This document shows, piece by piece, positions 1-10,583 of a DNA stretch of 10,583 bases. Made by a program: the position numbers and the translations under genes. Origin of the DNA: Planctomycetota bacterium (GTDB taxonomy: Bacteria > Planctomycetota > B15-G4 > JADJEK01); contig JBGAIQ010000095.1 of assembly GCA_044225365.1 (NCBI GenBank), positions 1-10,583 of the forward strand, given 5' to 3'. Under the pieces are notes generated by a model. The model was given only the letters and a program-made list of their open reading frames with translations, made no database searches and was not told the DNA's origin. Numbering within the stretch: the stretch's first letter is position 1; every line of letters begins with the position of its first letter.

Positions 1-1185
1 CGTGATACGGATCGCGTCGGCCCGCTCATGCTGCGCGCTGGACTCACGATGTATGGATTGCTCTCCCTCCCGCACCCAATCGAGTGGCCGCGGATGGCGT
101 CGCGTCGCGAGATCGCCGCGGTGTTCGGGGACGCGCGGGGCGCCCTGCCGCGGGGTCTCACCGGCGGTGGTTTCTACAGCGATGGCGCCACGCACGATGC
201 TCGCCTCACTCTCGCGCTCGCCGACGAGGCGCGCGCGGCCGGGGCGCTCGCGCTCACTCGAGTCGAAGCGCTCGACGTCGATTCCGCGGGAGACGAAGTC
301 CGTGTACACGCGATCGATCACGCCACCGGCGCGTCGCTCACGATCCGCTCGCGCAGCGTCGTTCTGGCCGCGGGTCCGTTCACGGACGATCTGAGGCGCC
401 GATTCCATTTCGATTCCCACCTCCTCGCCACGACTCGCGGCGCGCACATCGTGCTGCGCGGCGAGCGGCTCCGCCTTCGGCGGTCCGTGATCTTCACGTC
501 GGGGGTCGACGGCCGCGTCGTCTTCTTGCTGCGTTGGGGAACCTACACCGCCGTGGGCACGACGGATGTCGACGCCGACCCAAATGCGTCCGTCTCCGCA
601 ACGCCGGAAGAAGTCCGTTATCTCGTCGATTCGGCGAATTCGTTGCTACCGGACCTCGACCTCCGCGAACACGACGTGCTGTGCGCCGTCGCCGGATTGC
701 GTCCCTTGCTCCACGCAGGCGATCGAACGGCGTCGCAGCGCTCACGCGAGGAGACGATCCTCGAGGATGGGCCCCTGTTCACGATCGCGGGAGGAAAACT
801 CACGGGATATCGCGCGATCGCGGAAAAGGTCGGAGCGAGAGTCGCGCTGCATCTTCGCAAGGGCGACCCGAGCCCGTCCTCACCCACTCGCACGCACCGG
901 ATCCGCCCCACCTCGCCAGAGGCGGGCGAATTCGAAGAGCGCTTTCGAGCGCGCGATCTCGATTCGGCGAAGCTCGCTCTCGATCGCCTATTCGCGCGCG
1001 AATCCCTCCTCACTCCCGCCGACGTCGTCCTGCGACGCACCGATCTCGGACTCGACGCGCTGGACGTCGCTCAACGGGCGATCGAGTGGATCGAGCGGCA
1101 CTCGTCCCGCAAATTCGATGAGCGGGTCCTTCGCGAGTCCCGCGACGAGCTCGCGATTCGCCACTCATTTCGAAATCGATTGTGA
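1..1185 (+). CDS. glpD: FAD-dependent glycerol-3-phosphate dehydrogenase/oxidase (GlpD/GlpA family), 5'-partial
   Basis: Frame is open from base 1 (RDTDRVGPLMLRAGLTMYGLL), so the real start and the N-terminal FAD-binding motif lie upstream of the window. GlpD-family motifs: GGFYSDGATHDARL, VVLAAGPFTD, RGAHIV, DGRVVF, VGTTD, AGLRPL, SREE, TIAGGKLTGYRAIAE, DVVLRRT. Stop TGA at 1183-1185. Confidence 0.88.
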   Translation, partial: RDTDRVGPLMLRAGLTMYGLLSLPHPIEWPRMASRREIAAVFGDARGALPRGLTGGGFYSDGATHDARLTLALADEARAAGALALTRVEALDVDSAGDEVRVHAIDHATGASLTIRSRSVVLAAGPFTDDLRRRFHFDSHLLATTRGAHIVLRGERLRLRRSVIFTSGVDGRVVFLLRWGTYTAVGTTDVDADPNASVSATPEEVRYLVDSANSLLPDLDLREHDVLCAVAGLRPLLHAGDRTASQRSREETILEDGPLFTIAGGKLTGYRAIAEKVGARVALHLRKGDPSPSSPTRTHRIRPTSPEAGEFEERFRARDLDSAKLALDRLFARESLLTPADVVLRRTDLGLDALDVAQRAIEWIERHSSRKFDERVLRESRDELAIRHSFRNRL

Positions 1186-1370: not shown

Positions 1371-2306
1371 ATGAAGAGCTCCATGCTCCGTCGCACTTTC
1401 GTGTCCGTCGCAGGACTCGTGCTCGCTTCGTCTTCGTTCGCCGCCACCGAGACGTTCCCGGCGGTCGAGGGCTCCGCGTTTCCCATGCAGGTCGCGGTCT
1501 CGAAGCTCGCGAACGAGTTGTATCCGAACTTCACGTACGTCGACGAATCCGGCGCGACGCTCACCACGCTCAGCCAGGATGTCGTCGTGCTGCAGATCTC
1601 TGCCAGCGGAAACGTCGATGCGCCGGCGAGCGCGCCGACGCTCCACGTGCGCCGTCACATCTTCGTGCGCGAGCCTTCGGTTTGGGCCCGAGTCGCGGAT
1701 GAGGACATCGACGTGCGCGATATCGCGAACTCGTCGTACCTGGATCTACGACTCTCGTTCCGCGCGGGCGGGATCGCCGCGGCTGTGAAGCACCCCGAAC
1801 TCGCGAACATCGGCGGCTGGCACTGCGACACCAGCATCAACATCACGCTCGACCAGGACATCAAGACGCTGGCGAAGTCGATCACCAATCCGACGAACGC
1901 GGCCGCGGCCGTTTCCGCCGCGATGAGTCACGTGAAGTCGCACAACGAGATCTCGTCCGTCACGGACGCCAATGGGAACACGATGCTGCTGAACGCGAAT
2001 CAAACCTGGGGTGATGGAATCCGCGCGCTCGCGGCCGCGGATGGCAAGGACATCGGTCTCTCCGATGCGGCGGCCGCTGCGTCCGGCAGCTTCTGGGACT
2101 GCGTCGACAAGTGCTTCTCCCAGATCGGACACGTCATCACGTGGACCGAGCTCCTTTGCGTGACGATCGGACTCGCGGCCTGCGGTCTCGCGGGCCCAGG
2201 TTTCCCGGCCTGCGCTGCACTCGTCATCGAGGGTTGTGGAATCGTTGGCCTCATCGGCCACCTCGACGCGCTGATCGCCTGCCTCATCAAGTGCGCGGTC
2301 GAGTAG
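1371..2306 (+). CDS. Secreted orphan protein (311 aa) with C-terminal hydrophobic 8-Cys module; putative halocin C8-like bacteriocin/toxin precursor
   Basis: GGGAGA RBS at 1358-1363 precedes ATG 1371. The N-terminus MKSSMLRRTFVSVAGLVLASSSFAA is a signal peptide with RRxF. The C-terminus is FWDCVDKC...ACLIKCAVE with 8 Cys. Codon usage is GC3-rich like neighbouring genes, and a strong hairpin follows. The CDS is well supported; the function is inference. Confidence 0.8.
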   Translation: MKSSMLRRTFVSVAGLVLASSSFAATETFPAVEGSAFPMQVAVSKLANELYPNFTYVDESGATLTTLSQDVVVLQISASGNVDAPASAPTLHVRRHIFVREPSVWARVADEDIDVRDIANSSYLDLRLSFRAGGIAAAVKHPELANIGGWHCDTSINITLDQDIKTLAKSITNPTNAAAAVSAAMSHVKSHNEISSVTDANGNTMLLNANQTWGDGIRALAAADGKDIGLSDAAAAASGSFWDCVDKCFSQIGHVITWTELLCVTIGLAACGLAGPGFPACAALVIEGCGIVGLIGHLDALIACLIKCAVE

Positions 2307-2333: not shown

Positions 2334-2388
2334 ACGAACGAACACCCTCTCGACGCACCACGCGCGTCGAGAGGGTGTTCGGCTTCGT
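2334..2388. terminator. Long hairpin between convergent genes, probable bidirectional terminator
   Basis: Perfect 18-bp inverted repeat CGAACACCCTCTCGACGC (2339-2356) / GCGTCGAGAGGGTGTTCG (2364-2381) with a 7-nt loop. It extends by ACGAA (2334-2338)/TTCGT (2384-2388) across a 2-nt bulge and lies between the stops at 2306 (+) and 2410 (-). No long U-tract. Confidence 0.7.
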
Positions 2389-6149: not shown

Positions 6150-6153
<4 letters not shown>

Positions 6154-7160
6154 CGGGGGAGCGGTCCATTGCGAGATGGACGAGAGTGGCCGTTCGTCGA
6201 CGCGTCCATTCCATTGCGTTTATGGGCGTGGACGGTGATGACTCCGTGGTGCGGCTTCTGCCGCTCCCGCGAAGTCACCTTGCATAGTTCGACGACGAAG
6301 CCGGCGTTTCTGAGGAGTTCTTCGAGTTCGCTGGGGTCGAACCCGAGCCGGACGTGGTTGAAGCGCTGGAGCGCGTCCTTGTGCGCGTGACGTTCGAGGG
6401 TCGCGGCGACCAGGGCTCCGCCGGGCTTCAGGACGCGGAAGAGTTCGCGAAAAGCCTGTTTCGGATCCTCGGAATACGTCAACGCGTGAAGGAGGAGGGC
6501 CTGGTCGAACGCGCCGTTATGGAACGGCAGCGAATGCATGTCGCCCCGGACGTAGCGGACGTTCTTCAGATGACGCAGGCGCGCCTTCCCTGCGACGCTC
6601 ACGCGCGCCGAGCGATCGAGACATGTCACGTGTCGCGATCGGAACGACAGCAATTCCGCGGTCACACCGTCGCCGGAGGCGACATCGAGGACGGCGCCGA
6701 GGCGCGCGAGCCCGAGAGCGCCCCACGCCGTCGCCTCCCAAGTGCGCCCGGGCGAGTAATGCCGATCCATTTGTCCCGCGACGGAATCGGCCCAGGTCCC
6801 GCCCTTGCCGCTGCGCCGTGCGAGTGCCTCCTCGAGGGCTTTCTTGTCCTTCGCGAGCAATGGGTCGTTCGCCTTCGCGATCTGGCCGCGCACGAACGCC
6901 AAGAGTCCCGCGGCGGGTTCCGGGATCGCCCCGTCGTTGAGGCGGTAGAAGGTCGATACGCCTTGCTTGCGATCGACGACGAGCGCCGCTTCCCGCAGGC
7001 GCATCAGATGCGTGGAGACTCGCGACTGTGCGAGCCGCGTGATCCGTGTGATCTCGGCGACGGTGAGCTCCTCCCGCTCGACGAGATGCAAGAGCCGAAC
7101 CCGCGTCGGGTCGGCCAGTAATCGAAAGAGGTCGGTCGTCGTCTCGAGACTTGGTGCCAT
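6150..7160 (-). CDS. ArsR-family HTH fused to a class I SAM-binding (methyltransferase-like) domain; SahR/SamR-type methionine/SAM-cycle regulator
   Basis: N-terminal ArsR wHTH ([10 protein letters not shown]...ELTVAEI...[19 protein letters not shown]). Linker [23 protein letters not shown]-binding motifs [26 protein letters not shown]. Its TGA overlaps the metH ATG (ATGA, 6153-6150). Confidence 0.9.
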
Positions 7161-7166
7161 GCGGCA

Positions 7167-7193
7167 TTCATCCGTTCATCGGGATGAAAGGAT
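7167..7193. promoter_or_regulatory. Putative autoregulatory operator of the ArsR/SAM regulator (overlapping palindromes)
   Basis: ATCC-G-TTCATC-GG-GATGAA-A-GGAT (7170-7193; 10 of 12 symmetric pairs) overlaps TTCATCC-N8-GGATGAA (7167-7188). Both lie between the promoter and the ATG at 7160. Confidence 0.65.
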
Positions 7194-7216
7194 CGCACAG
7201 ATTCTGCAATTGTCAA
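7189..7216 (-). promoter_or_regulatory. Sigma70-type promoter of the regulator-metH operon
   Basis: The minus strand reads TTGACA (7216-7211, consensus -35), a 16-nt spacer, then GATCCT (7194-7189) preceded by TGc (extended -10-like). The -10 is degenerate. Confidence 0.6.
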
Positions 7217-7244
7217 GACGGCGGACCCTCGCCCGTTCAAAGGG

Positions 7245-7691
7245 TCAGTGCGCGAAGACGCGCGCGGGGTCCTTGAACGACTTGAATTCCAGTGCGTTGC
7301 CCGAGGGATCGATCACGAACAACGTCGCTTGTTCCCCGATCTGCCCCTGGAACCGGATGCGAGGTCCGATGACGAACTCGATTCCCTTCGAGGCGAGTCG
7401 GTCCTTCAGGGCATGCCAGTCGTCCCAGGGGAGGACCATTCCGAAATGGCGAACGGGAACCGGATCGCCATCGACCGTGTTCGGGGCCGCGCGCCGCGCT
7501 TCCGCGGCATTCACGTGCGCGGAGATCTGGTGTCCGAAGAAGTCGAAGTCCACCCACGTCGTGGCGGAGCGGCCCTCCCGACAACCGAGAACATCGCCAT
7601 AGAAACGACGCGTCGCTTCGAGGTCCAGGACCGGAAAGGCGAGGTGGAAGGGATGGAGGTTCGGATGCTCGAACGATTGGGTCGCGCTCAT
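7245..7691 (-). CDS. VOC (glyoxalase/bleomycin resistance/extradiol dioxygenase) family protein, 148 aa
   Basis: [70 protein letters not shown]: the His/His/Glu metal-ligand pattern of VOC proteins. Start taken at ATG 7691, because the longer ORF to 7820 overlaps the divergent gene. Confidence 0.9.
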
Positions 7692-7737
7692 GGGGCGATA
7701 GGATACCGCGACCCGTACTCCCTTCGAAAGCCGCACG

Positions 7738-9468
7738 ATGAACCGGACCCTTCGTCTCGCCGCGATCGCGCTCCTCCTCGTTGCTGACTCACCTTCGGCG
7801 CGCTCGCAGGATGTGGGCACGGTCGCCGACCTGCACGAACTCGTAGAGCTCTATCGCGCGGAGCGAGACGACTTGAATCGCTTCTACTCGGTCGACTCGT
7901 CGGCGACGAAGCAGGCGCGTTTCGAGCGACTCGCTGCCGACTGGAAATCGCGCCTCGCCGCCCTCGATTGGAGTTCGCTCTCGCAGGACGCACGCATCGA
8001 TTCGTATCTCCTCTCGGACCTCGTCGAGGCCGACCTCCGGGAGCGCACCCTTCGAGGGAATCAAACGACGGAAGACAAGGCGTTCCTTCCGTTCCTCGAA
8101 CGGATCGCGGCCATGGAGGAAGGCCGCTGGAAGCTCGCGCCGGTCGATGGACCCAAGGTGAGCGCGGAGATCTCTCAACTCACCCGCGAGGTGAAGGACG
8201 TCGAGGGACGCTTGGTGAAGCAAGGCGACCCGGTGAAGGACCTCCCGCCGCTCACTCGACCTCGTGCGTTGCGGATCGCGGCTCGGGTCGACGACGCCCG
8301 CGACGCGCTCGATCGCTTCTCGTATCACTACCTCCGCTACGACCCGGACGCGACTTGGTGGCTCGATGCGCCCATCAAGTCGCTTGCGGTCGCGCTCGAC
8401 TCGTATCGCGACAAACTGCGCCGCGAGATCGCGGGCAAGAGAGGCGGCGACGACGAACCCATGGTCGGCGAACCGATCGGTCACGACCGGCTCGTCGCCG
8501 CTCTGCAACGCGAACGCGTCGCCTACTCGCCCGAGGAGATCGTGAAGATCGGCGAGGACCAGCTCGCATTTTGCGACGCGGCGATGCTGAAGGCGGCGCA
8601 CGAGCTGAAGTGCGACACGATCGAGCAAGCCCTGGAGATCGTGAAGAGCCACCAGGCGAAGCCCGGTGCGCAGGACGACACGATCGAGCAGCTTGCGAAC
8701 GAGTCGATTGCGTTCCTCGACTCACACGATCTCGTCACGATCCCCGACCTGTGCCGCGAGACGTGGCGCGTCGACATGATGCCGCTGCCGGATCAACGCT
8801 TCCTCCCGTTCGCCGCCTACGGTGGGCAGTGCATGATCGTCAACTACGCGGCCGACGATCAGTCGCTGGAGGATCGCACGGCCCGCATGCGCGACAACAA
8901 CGTGCACTTCACCCGCAACGTGACACCGCACGAACTCATCCCGGGCCACCATCTCCAGGGGTTCATGGGCGCTCGCTATCGCCCTTATCGACGCGTCTTC
9001 AGCACGCCCTTCCTCGGGGAAGGTTGGTGTCTCTACTTCGAGTATCGCTACCTCGATCTCGGATGGGCGAAGTCACCGGAGGACAAACTCGGAATCCTCT
9101 TCTGGCGGCGCCATCGCGCGGCGCGGATCATCGTCTCGTTGAAGTACCACCTCGGAACGATGCAGCCCGATGAGATGGTGAAGTTCCTCGAGGATCGGGT
9201 CGGTTGGGGAGAGGGCGCAGCCAAGGGCGAGGTACGGCGCTTCCTCGAGGGTGGTTACGGTCCGCTGTATCAATGCGCCTACATGATCGGAGGACTTCAG
9301 CTCTACGCGTTGCATGACGAGATCGTGAAGTCCGGCAAGATGACCGAGAGAGCCTTCCACGACGCCGTCCTCCACGAGAACGCGATCCCGATCGAGCTGA
9401 TCCGCGCGCGTCTCTTGGATCTCCCGCTCGAACGAAACGCCAAGGCTTCGTGGCACTTCATGCCGTAG
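7738..9468 (+). CDS. Secreted DUF885 family protein (putative zinc metallopeptidase)
   Basis: Signal peptide [26 protein letters not shown]885 motifs [44 protein letters not shown]. Confidence 0.88.
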
Positions 9469-9907: not shown

Positions 9908-10583
9908 TTAGCGGTTGATGCGCTCGAGGCGCTTCTGGGCGCTGGCCATCTGCGTGAGCGCGTCGAGGTCGGGAAACAGCCCCGGCTGGATCGCGCGGAC
10001 GGCTCCGAGATGCCACAGCGCATCCTTGAAGTCCGCGGACGGCTCCGAGATGCCACAGCGCATCCTTGAAGTCACCCTCGAAGAGTGCGATGCGAGCGAG
10101 GCCGTAATGCGCTTCGACCGAGACTGGATCCCGCACGAGACTGCGCCGGAGTCGATCCTTTGCCTCTTCGACCCTGGCCTGGAAGAGCGCGAGGATGCCG
10201 ACCTGCGCCAGAGATCTCGGATCCTCCGGATGCGAAGCCTCGAGCTCCTTTGCCGCCTCGTACGCCTCACCGATCTTGCCGCTCTTGCGTAGCGCATGGA
10301 TCCGGACCGAGCGCGCGAGGAACGCACTCGGCGCGAGAGGCGCAGCAGCCTCGAGGAGCTTCAACGCGGTCCCAGGATCCGACTCTGCCAGCGCGTCCGC
10401 ACGAGCGACACGACCGTCGACCTGCAGGCGCTCGAAGCCGAGGCTGCGCAAGAAGACCGTGATCGCGCGAGCGCGCGCAATGGCTGGTTCACTGATCGGC
10501 GCGATCTCCGCCCCACTCTCGCTTCGCGTGAACAACGCGTCGTGGAAGACATCGGGCAGGACGACGTTGCCGGCGATCTCACG
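9908..10583 (-). CDS. Tetratricopeptide-repeat (TPR) protein, 5'-partial, frameshifted by a 40-bp duplication
   Basis: Frame is open to the window edge. TPR-like helices: ALKLLEAAAPLAP, GKIGEAYEAAKELEASHPEDPRSLAQVGILALFQARVEEAKDRLRRSLVRDPVSVEAHYGLARIALFEGDFKDALWHL. Removing one 40-bp copy joins it in frame to GAVRAIQPGLFPDLDALTQMASAQKRLERINR*, stop at 9910-9908. Confidence 0.75.
9994..10073. repeat. Exact 40-bp tandem duplication
   Basis: CGCGGACGGCTCCGAGATGCCACAGCGCATCCTTGAAGTC occurs at 9994-10033 and 10034-10073, identical and directly adjacent. Confidence 0.97.

Follow-up and report, generated by a model that had tools for sequence, protein, structure and literature searches.

What does an exported bacterial protein gain from a strongly hydrophobic tail whose eight cysteines are spaced as a mirror image? 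The question is raised by P0001, a protein encoded on the plus strand of a contig from a Planctomycetota bacterium (JBGAIQ010000095.1). The stretch that we analyzed, hereafter the window, is this entire 10.6-kb contig (10,583 nucleotides) of a 6.5-Mb genome, and its composition is typical for that genome. An earlier reading made from the sequence alone (the sequence-only reading) had proposed that the last 71 residues form an antiparallel helical hairpin, closed by four nested disulfides and probably active on membranes. From family searches, structure predictions and comparisons with known peptides, we suggest that the tail is a hairpin with a ladder of four disulfides that is chaperoned by its own precursor, in a layout like that of the halocin C8 precursor ProC8, and that it is possibly released as a membrane-active peptide. 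We put the probability of this explanation at about 0.45.

A conserved mirror-symmetric cysteine module

P0001 has 311 residues and is read from an ATG at 1371 to a stop codon at 2304-2306. The gene is real. Its GC content at codon positions 1/2/3 is 0.60/0.49/0.84, compared with 0.64/0.40/0.87 for the neighboring metH, and this metH-like profile is seen in both the N-terminal part and the module, which argues against a chance open frame of a GC-rich genome.

Our recount of the tail agreed exactly with the sequence-only reading. The cysteine codons at 2100, 2112, 2157, 2181, 2211, 2235, 2280 and 2292 correspond to residues 244, 248, 263, 271, 281, 289, 304 and 308, with gaps of 3-14-7-9-7-14-3 that are mirror-symmetric around the loop GLAGPGFPA. 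The reported richness in Gly, Ala, Ile, Leu and Val (41 of 71 residues) was likewise found, as was the single cysteine of the preceding ~240 residues (C152, codon 1824). The last 72 residues have a grand average of hydropathy (GRAVY) of 1.24 and a net charge of -4. Across the family, the modules range from 0.95 to 1.59 in GRAVY and from -1 to -7 in net charge, with hydropathy (KD19) maxima of 1.9-2.4; these maxima are at the level of membrane segments, and the module is net acidic nonetheless. For eight cysteines placed at random in 71 positions, palindromic gaps have p = 1.4e-4 by exact enumeration, but this figure is post hoc, and conservation is therefore the stronger and real test of the mirror pattern.

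An exhaustive HMMER search of 1.84 billion protein cluster representatives (E ≤ 0.001) returned 15 proteins, the query included. We kept 11 relatives, namely P0002-P0011 (277-327 aa, E 1e-32 to 8e-9) and P0015 (122 aa); P0009-P0011 matched over the C-terminal part only and most of the others over most of their length. A twelfth relative, the third paralog in the Planctomycetota metagenome-assembled genome (MAG) G062, came from a genome search. P0012-P0014 are long repeat proteins and were dropped; P0012 contains HYR domains, and its match is limited to a short, repeated stretch around 'VT..D.NGNT'.

We counted the cysteine pattern in 18 family sequences, which form 13 distinct clusters. The palindromic eight-cysteine pattern is kept in 17 of the 18 sequences and 12 of the 13 clusters, and its form is 3-14-7-(8..11)-7-14-3 in 11 of the 13. 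The arm gaps (3, 14 and 7) are constant on both sides across the family and only the loop varies in length; a comparison of spacers among homologs had been suggested as a check by the sequence-only reading. The cluster of P0004 has gaps of 3-22-3-9-3-22-3, in which C3 and C6 are both lost and two new cysteines stand at mirrored places beside the loop; such a joint replacement, as a single event, is what nested pairing predicts, and the constant arm lengths likewise favor that pairing indirectly. The exception is P0006, whose last gap is 4 instead of 3. P0010 and P0019 have one additional cysteine upstream of the module. The mirror pattern is thus a real and conserved feature of the family.

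The family is new, in line with the earlier proposal. No Pfam or NCBIfam family scored above noise for P0001 or the 12 members, and a PDB sequence search gave no match at E ≤ 10. The best ESM Atlas scores (0.83-0.84) are below the level that counts, and the N-terminal domain alone had no match there; one row is a cluster with the automatically assigned name 'immunity protein/bacteriocin domain' (17% of its members have PF27906), which we treat as a lead only. Our literature search found no planctomycetal family with eight mirrored cysteines, and the tables of bacterial C8 homologues in bioRxiv 10.64898/2026.07.27.741052, which could bear on this, lay outside it.

All records of relatives that bear a name are 'hypothetical protein' entries from Planctomycetota MAGs, with P0003 and P0005 coming from one and the same MAG. 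The gene is present once in the host genome and three times in G062. Two samples of the phylum, of 401 and 400 genomes, contained the family in one genome each, which was the centre genome both times, and 60 related genomes gave chance-level matches only (best E 0.013, with internal stops). This patchiness resembles that of accessory or conflict genes. A DNA pattern of cysteine codons, which fixed the loop at 9 residues and so placed members with other loop lengths outside the search, gave at least 119 stretches in genome contigs; among the matches listed only L094 (P0003) fits the family profile, and the others are due to chance. A stricter pattern, again with a loop of 9 residues, gave two stretches in metagenome contigs, of which L166 (P0008) is real and L167 is due to chance. 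Among the matches listed by word-index protein searches, only the query and P0011 belong to the family; the last of these searches also missed P0015, and we draw no conclusion from them.

Two short members stand apart. P0015 and P0020 (122 and 139 aa) have the complete eight-cysteine module behind just 45-60 residues, have no signal peptide, and lie on contigs of ≤2.8 kb. This may reflect truncation of the gene calls, or the short architecture may be real.

Predicted architecture of P0001

P0001 is predicted to be an exported or secreted protein that consists of a signal peptide, an α/β domain of ~200 residues, a disordered linker and the 71-residue hydrophobic tail (Table 1). The AlphaFold2 (AF2) model of the full-length protein has a mean predicted local distance difference test (pLDDT) score of 81, a predicted template modeling (pTM) score of 0.80 and a helical tail. 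Residues 1-23 have a pLDDT below 50. The putative signal peptide has a weak hydrophobic core, its KD19 peak of 1.29 being among the lowest in the family. No NCBIfam Tat-signal model matched P0001, and ordinary Sec-like signals without the arginine pair are found in most relatives. In the N-terminal domain, pLDDT is mostly above 90 and the strands span residues 56-68, 71-82, 88-100, 104-118, 121-130, 151-160 and 188-198. Linker residues 231-237 fall below 50, and this region is variable and gapped in the family alignments.

When modeled alone, the module is a plain two-helix hairpin (helices 4-46 and 49-84, pLDDT 82), as the earlier reading had envisaged. The full-length model shows one break per arm, at 253-257 and at 289-290. 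The proposal that the cysteines of an arm line one helical face stood in part: each of the offsets i+4, i+8 and i+15 fits locally, but at 100 degrees per residue the positions of the four cysteines rotate by roughly half a turn along an arm, so that a kink or supercoil would be needed. As a model, a helical hairpin with four matched cysteine levels is well supported. Foldseek searches of the PDB with the full-length or the module model gave no match at E ≤ 0.001; rows at E 3-6 only were to saposin B, heads of α-pore-forming toxins, ATP synthase c-subunits and a copper storage protein.

The sequence-only reading needs correcting in one respect: the module is not free-standing and is predicted to be buried on the β-sheet of the N-terminal domain. 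With the N-terminal domain and the tail as separate chains, the complex prediction scored 0.77, compared with 0.02 for the best of three controls; 58 of 80 solved complexes attain this mark, as do 2 of 110 mismatched pairs, counts that are rough because custom alignments were used. At least 86% of the contacts were common to the docking runs, and the pLDDT of the partner was at least 73. The contacts alternate along the strands (56, 58, 60; 71-79; 89-99; 109-117; 122-128; 154-160), which suggests that the hairpin is covered by one face of the N-terminal sheet. The predicted interface is very large, with 183-204 contacts. Docking the two halves of one chain indicates confident packing and says nothing of binding after cleavage.

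On such a hairpin, four nested disulfides are likely, with C244 paired to C308, C248 to C304, C263 to C289 and C271 to C281. Mirrored cysteines on packed antiparallel helices outside the cytoplasm would oxidize readily. The window has no gene for a radical SAM enzyme, a lanthionine synthetase or a YcaO protein, an absence that had been the earlier ground for preferring disulfides to thioether links.

Comparison with known cysteine-rich peptides

A close parallel in overall layout is the halocin C8 precursor. According to the available text of the preprint by Strock and Warnecke (bioRxiv 10.64898/2026.07.27.741052), ProC8 is exported by the twin-arginine translocation (Tat) pathway and cut into the immunity protein HalI and a 76-aa halocin. 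The same text describes bacterial ProC8 homologues as having no conserved neighbors, as often encoded by a stand-alone gene, and as having N-terminal parts that miss the Pfam model yet appear similar in structure. Like P0001, ProC8 combines an export signal, an N-terminal domain of ~200 residues and a hydrophobic, cysteine-rich tail of ~70 residues, and the total length is similar to that of the P0001 family in most cases. Among 23 haloarchaeal precursors of this type, we found the same signal peptide and cysteine-rich ~70-aa tail, with an N-terminal part of roughly 180-250 residues in most.

The cysteines set the two groups apart. The halocin C8 domain was present in 22 of 151 genomes searched; we fetched 30 haloarchaeal loci and extracted 29 domains. 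These have ten cysteines, mostly as C-x2-C-x7-C-x3-C-x7-C-x13-C-x7-C-x8-C-x8-C-x5-C, whereas the P0001 family has eight with other spacing, and the pattern C-x2-C-x7-C-x3-C-x7-C-x(11-14)-C-x7-C is not found in it. The hosts differ as well, the P0001 family being in Planctomycetota and the halocin C8 type in haloarchaea or Bacillota. Within the halocin C8 set itself, the TIGR04449 domains of four loci (L134, L135, L136 and L138) have gaps of 2-7-11-3-12-3-11-7-5, in which the inner eight cysteines are mirror-spaced (7-11-3-12-3-11-7). It follows that peptides of the halocin C8 type, too, may be hairpins whose cysteine levels match.

Among bacterial peptides, the glycocins (sublancin, glycocin F and thermoglycocin) come closest to two helices held together by nested disulfides; in the available text of PMC12457901 they have, like the module, two α-helices, a loop and nested bridges between mirrored cysteines. 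As described there, they differ from the module in having two nested bridges (and, in some of them, a third at another place) instead of four levels; in being ribosomally made, post-translationally modified peptides of ~40-50 residues with a leader peptide instead of the C-terminus of a 311-residue protein; and in having a glycosyltransferase, a glycosylated loop residue and a peptidase-transporter. The window contains no glycocin-type glycosyltransferase, leader peptide or peptidase-domain ATP-binding cassette transporter.

The module also shares features with eukaryotic and lipid-active folds. α-Hairpinins and twin CX3C/CX9C proteins are eukaryotic helical hairpins with mirrored cysteine motifs and two bridges, and they are hydrophilic or amphipathic. 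The module is likewise predicted as two antiparallel helices with mirrored cysteine motifs (AF2 model; 12 of 13 clusters), and its outer pairs, C-x3-C and C-x3-C, are of the twin CX3C type; in contrast, it has four levels, is strongly hydrophobic and is bacterial. Saposin-like proteins are lipid-active helical domains of ~80 residues with nested pairing (C1-C6, C2-C5 and C3-C4), with six cysteines compared with eight in the module. The SapB Pfam model did not match, and the Foldseek row to saposin B is not significant (E 4.5, template modeling score 0.30).

Two further candidates were rejected. Hydrophobins have eight cysteines and four disulfides, but their CC doublets and β fold do not agree with the module. 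A C-terminal sorting signal was dismissed because relatives do not conserve the PGF of the loop and none of the NCBIfam models for sorting domains matched.

A putative mechanism and its alternatives

Overall, we propose that P0001 is an exported two-part protein, the C-terminal 71 residues of which would form an antiparallel, very hydrophobic and net-acidic helical hairpin. The two arms, with cysteines at four matched levels, would pair as nested disulfides. In the precursor, the hairpin would lie on one face of the N-terminal β-sheet and would be kept soluble by it. By analogy with ProC8, in which the N-terminal part is the HalI immunity protein and the C-terminal part the halocin, the linker that joins the two parts would be cut outside the cell. 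The stapled hairpin might then be freed as a membrane-active, bacteriocin-like peptide, and the N-terminal domain would be its chaperone and possibly its immunity protein. For release and membrane activity, this proposal draws on the ProC8 analogy, the linker and the hydrophobicity of the module. We are more doubtful about a wider formulation, in which the family would be an unrecognized class of planctomycetal protein antibiotics whose α/β cradle releases a stapled membrane toxin, convergent with halocin C8 and with immunity encoded in cis.

Several observations weigh against the proposed mechanism. Kinship of the P0001 family with halocin C8 was not detected, though the layout is the same. 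The sequence-only reading had suggested a check for this kinship, and it came out negative: for TIGR04449 (halocin_C8_dom, cut-off 24 bits) there was no match in the 12 members and none at E ≤ 10 in the host genome, and P0001 and the module alone gave no NCBIfam family at all at E ≤ 10. PF22862 (Hac8_like_N, HalI) matched neither P0001 (E ≤ 10), the 12 members (E ≤ 1) nor the host genome (E ≤ 10). Haloferax volcanii, the positive control for both searches, matched. Profile-profile comparison by hhalign gave probabilities of 0.35% for the C-terminal modules, 0.09% for the N-terminal parts and 0.9% for the full length, compared with 99.8% for controls in which each family was split into halves.

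No conserved cleavage motif was seen in the family, and at the five loci examined the gene has no conserved neighbor that encodes a transporter, a protease or a separate immunity protein. No free-standing form of 46-149 aa was found, in a search that also missed P0015. The structural evidence has its own weak points: the AF2 alignments are shallow (12 rows for the full-length protein and 13 for the module), and the two models differ, with four tail helices in the full-length context compared with two long helices for the module alone. The large interface would be as compatible with a two-domain globule that stays together as with a cargo that is released. As for the disulfides, the host genome (94% complete) has no match to DSBA (PF01323), Thioredoxin_4 (PF13462), DsbB (PF02600) or VKOR (PF07884), and four related genomes, three from the host's family and one from its phylum, have no DSBA or VKOR match. 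Two VKOR homologues are present in G062, the genome with three paralogs. Given the missing matches, oxidation may use an unrecognized oxidoreductase or occur outside the cell; alternatively, the thiols bind metal.

Next to the released hairpin, the explanation that survives best is that nothing is released. P0001 would then be a permanent two-domain periplasmic or secreted protein, in which the hairpin is a hydrophobic core or lid, for example for binding a lipid or another hydrophobic ligand, and the disulfides only stabilize the fold. We regard this as rather unlikely. It accords with the full-length pTM, with the size and specificity of the interface and with the constant association of the N-terminal domain and the module in the members of 277-327 aa, and it would leave no need for the processing or export genes and the free-standing short forms that we failed to find. 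A linker that is disordered and variable in length and composition is less easily reconciled with it, and KD19 maxima of 1.9-2.4 would be unusual for a soluble domain. Moreover, no ligand-binding fold was recognized, and P0015 and P0020 carry the module with a short N-terminal part only, though their gene calls are possibly truncated.

The possibility that the matched cysteine levels form a metal-thiolate site, for Cu(I) or another thiophilic metal, instead of disulfides is one that we consider improbable. Copper storage proteins bind copper with cysteine-lined helices, and eight conserved cysteines at matched heights on two antiparallel helices would suit such a role; Csp3 is among the weak Foldseek rows (E 5.4, not significant). 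The Tat pathway often exports cofactor-loaded proteins, and P0001 has a twin-arginine-type signal; however, the ordinary Sec-type signals of most relatives imply export in the unfolded state. The absence of DsbA, DsbB and VKOR matches in the host genome also speaks for thiols. Nevertheless, the N-terminal domain has no conserved His, Met or extra Cys, the neighbors at the loci examined include no genes for metal handling, and the extreme hydrophobicity of the module is unlike that of a soluble metal store.

A C-terminal anchor, whose arms would span the producer membrane as a hairpin and tether the N-terminal domain to the cell surface, is equally improbable: the KD19 maxima exceed the usual transmembrane threshold of 1.6 and the weak, non-significant Foldseek rows include the hairpins of ATP synthase c-subunits, but the 13 family loops together contain 0 Lys/Arg and 8 Asp/Glu in a net-acidic module, contrary to what the positive-inside rule would expect of a loop in the cytoplasm, both arms contain charged residues, the module is confidently predicted to pack on the N-terminal sheet, and conserved cysteine pairs at mid-membrane or cytoplasmic levels would have no obvious role.

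Genomic context

The neighbors of the gene in the window encode a flavin adenine dinucleotide (FAD) oxidoreductase, MetH, an ArsR-methyltransferase, a VOC protein, a DUF885 protein and a tetratricopeptide repeat (TPR) protein. At the five loci examined, no neighbor is shared. The neighbors at L094 are proteins without a Pfam match, and those at L166 are an Ig-domain protein and a hybrid histidine kinase. In G062, two paralogs lie 6.6 kb apart on opposite strands of one locus (L162, G062:C25:47000-66900), at 6841-7776 (+) and 13432-14454 (-). The interval contains one gene for a 979-aa protein with a thioredoxin-like domain and another of the di-haem peroxidase/MauG-like type; a DUF4062-SIR2 protein adjoins the second paralog, and a CBM96-like protein is also encoded near the pair.

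Downstream of the P0001 gene, a stem-loop, likely a two-way terminator, has a predicted RNA folding energy of -47.2 kcal/mol (z -5.8), and none of 200 shuffles folded as well. A scan for consensus terminators did not call it because it has no T-run. Two other observations concern the rest of the window. On the minus strand, the gene at 6150-7160 encodes an ArsR-type helix-turn-helix fused to an S-adenosylmethionine methyltransferase domain, and its stop codon overlaps the start of metH by 4 bases (6150-6153), which suggests that the two genes are co-transcribed. Inside the minus-strand TPR gene, positions 9994-10073 are a perfect 40-bp tandem duplication of two copies with 100% identity. Since 40 bp is not a multiple of three, the duplication shifts the frame, and the open reading frame becomes rich in Arg and Pro downstream of it; the gene is either frameshifted or affected by an assembly artefact.

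Table 1. Positions of the P0001 gene, its predicted parts and the adjoining stem-loop in the window
Feature	Positions	Strand	Remarks
Gene for P0001, probably secreted	1371..2306	+	GC at third codon position 0.84; 11 relatives, 122-327 aa; single copy
Putative signal peptide, residues 1-24	1371..1442	+	Twin-arginine motif LRRTFV; cleavage site by eye between SFA and A
Predicted N-terminal α/β domain, residues 25-226	1443..2048	+	AF2; long meander β-sheet plus helices; predicted cradle of the hairpin
Linker, residues 227-240	2049..2090	+	Rich in Gly/Ser/Ala/Pro; length variable in family; candidate processing region
Hydrophobic eight-cysteine module, residues 241-311 (71 aa)	2091..2303	+	
C244-x3-C248, outer rungs of arm 1	2100..2114	+	Invariant in both family alignments
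C263-x7-C271, inner rungs of arm 1	2157..2183	+	G267 in 12/13
Loop GLAGPGFPA, residues 272-280	2184..2210	+	Sole length-variable segment (8-11); 17 between aligned cysteines in P0004
C281-x7-C289, inner rungs of arm 2	2211..2237	+	
C304-x3-C308, outer rungs of arm 2	2280..2294	+	
Stem-loop, likely two-way terminator	2334..2388	.	Lies where the P0001 gene and metH converge, between their stop codons

Implications

If the nested ladder is real, it would exceed in length any disulfide-stapled helical hairpin so far described for a bacterial protein, with four rungs compared with the two nested bridges that the available text of PMC12457901 gives for glycocin F and sublancin. The module sits on a fold without a solved relative. 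Planctomycetota are poorly explored for antimicrobial peptides, and a self-chaperoned hydrophobic peptide, if this is indeed what P0001 carries, would be a new scaffold. The family would then be a second, independent case of the logic of the halocin C8 precursor, and it could help explain how very hydrophobic bacteriocins stay soluble and harmless until their release.

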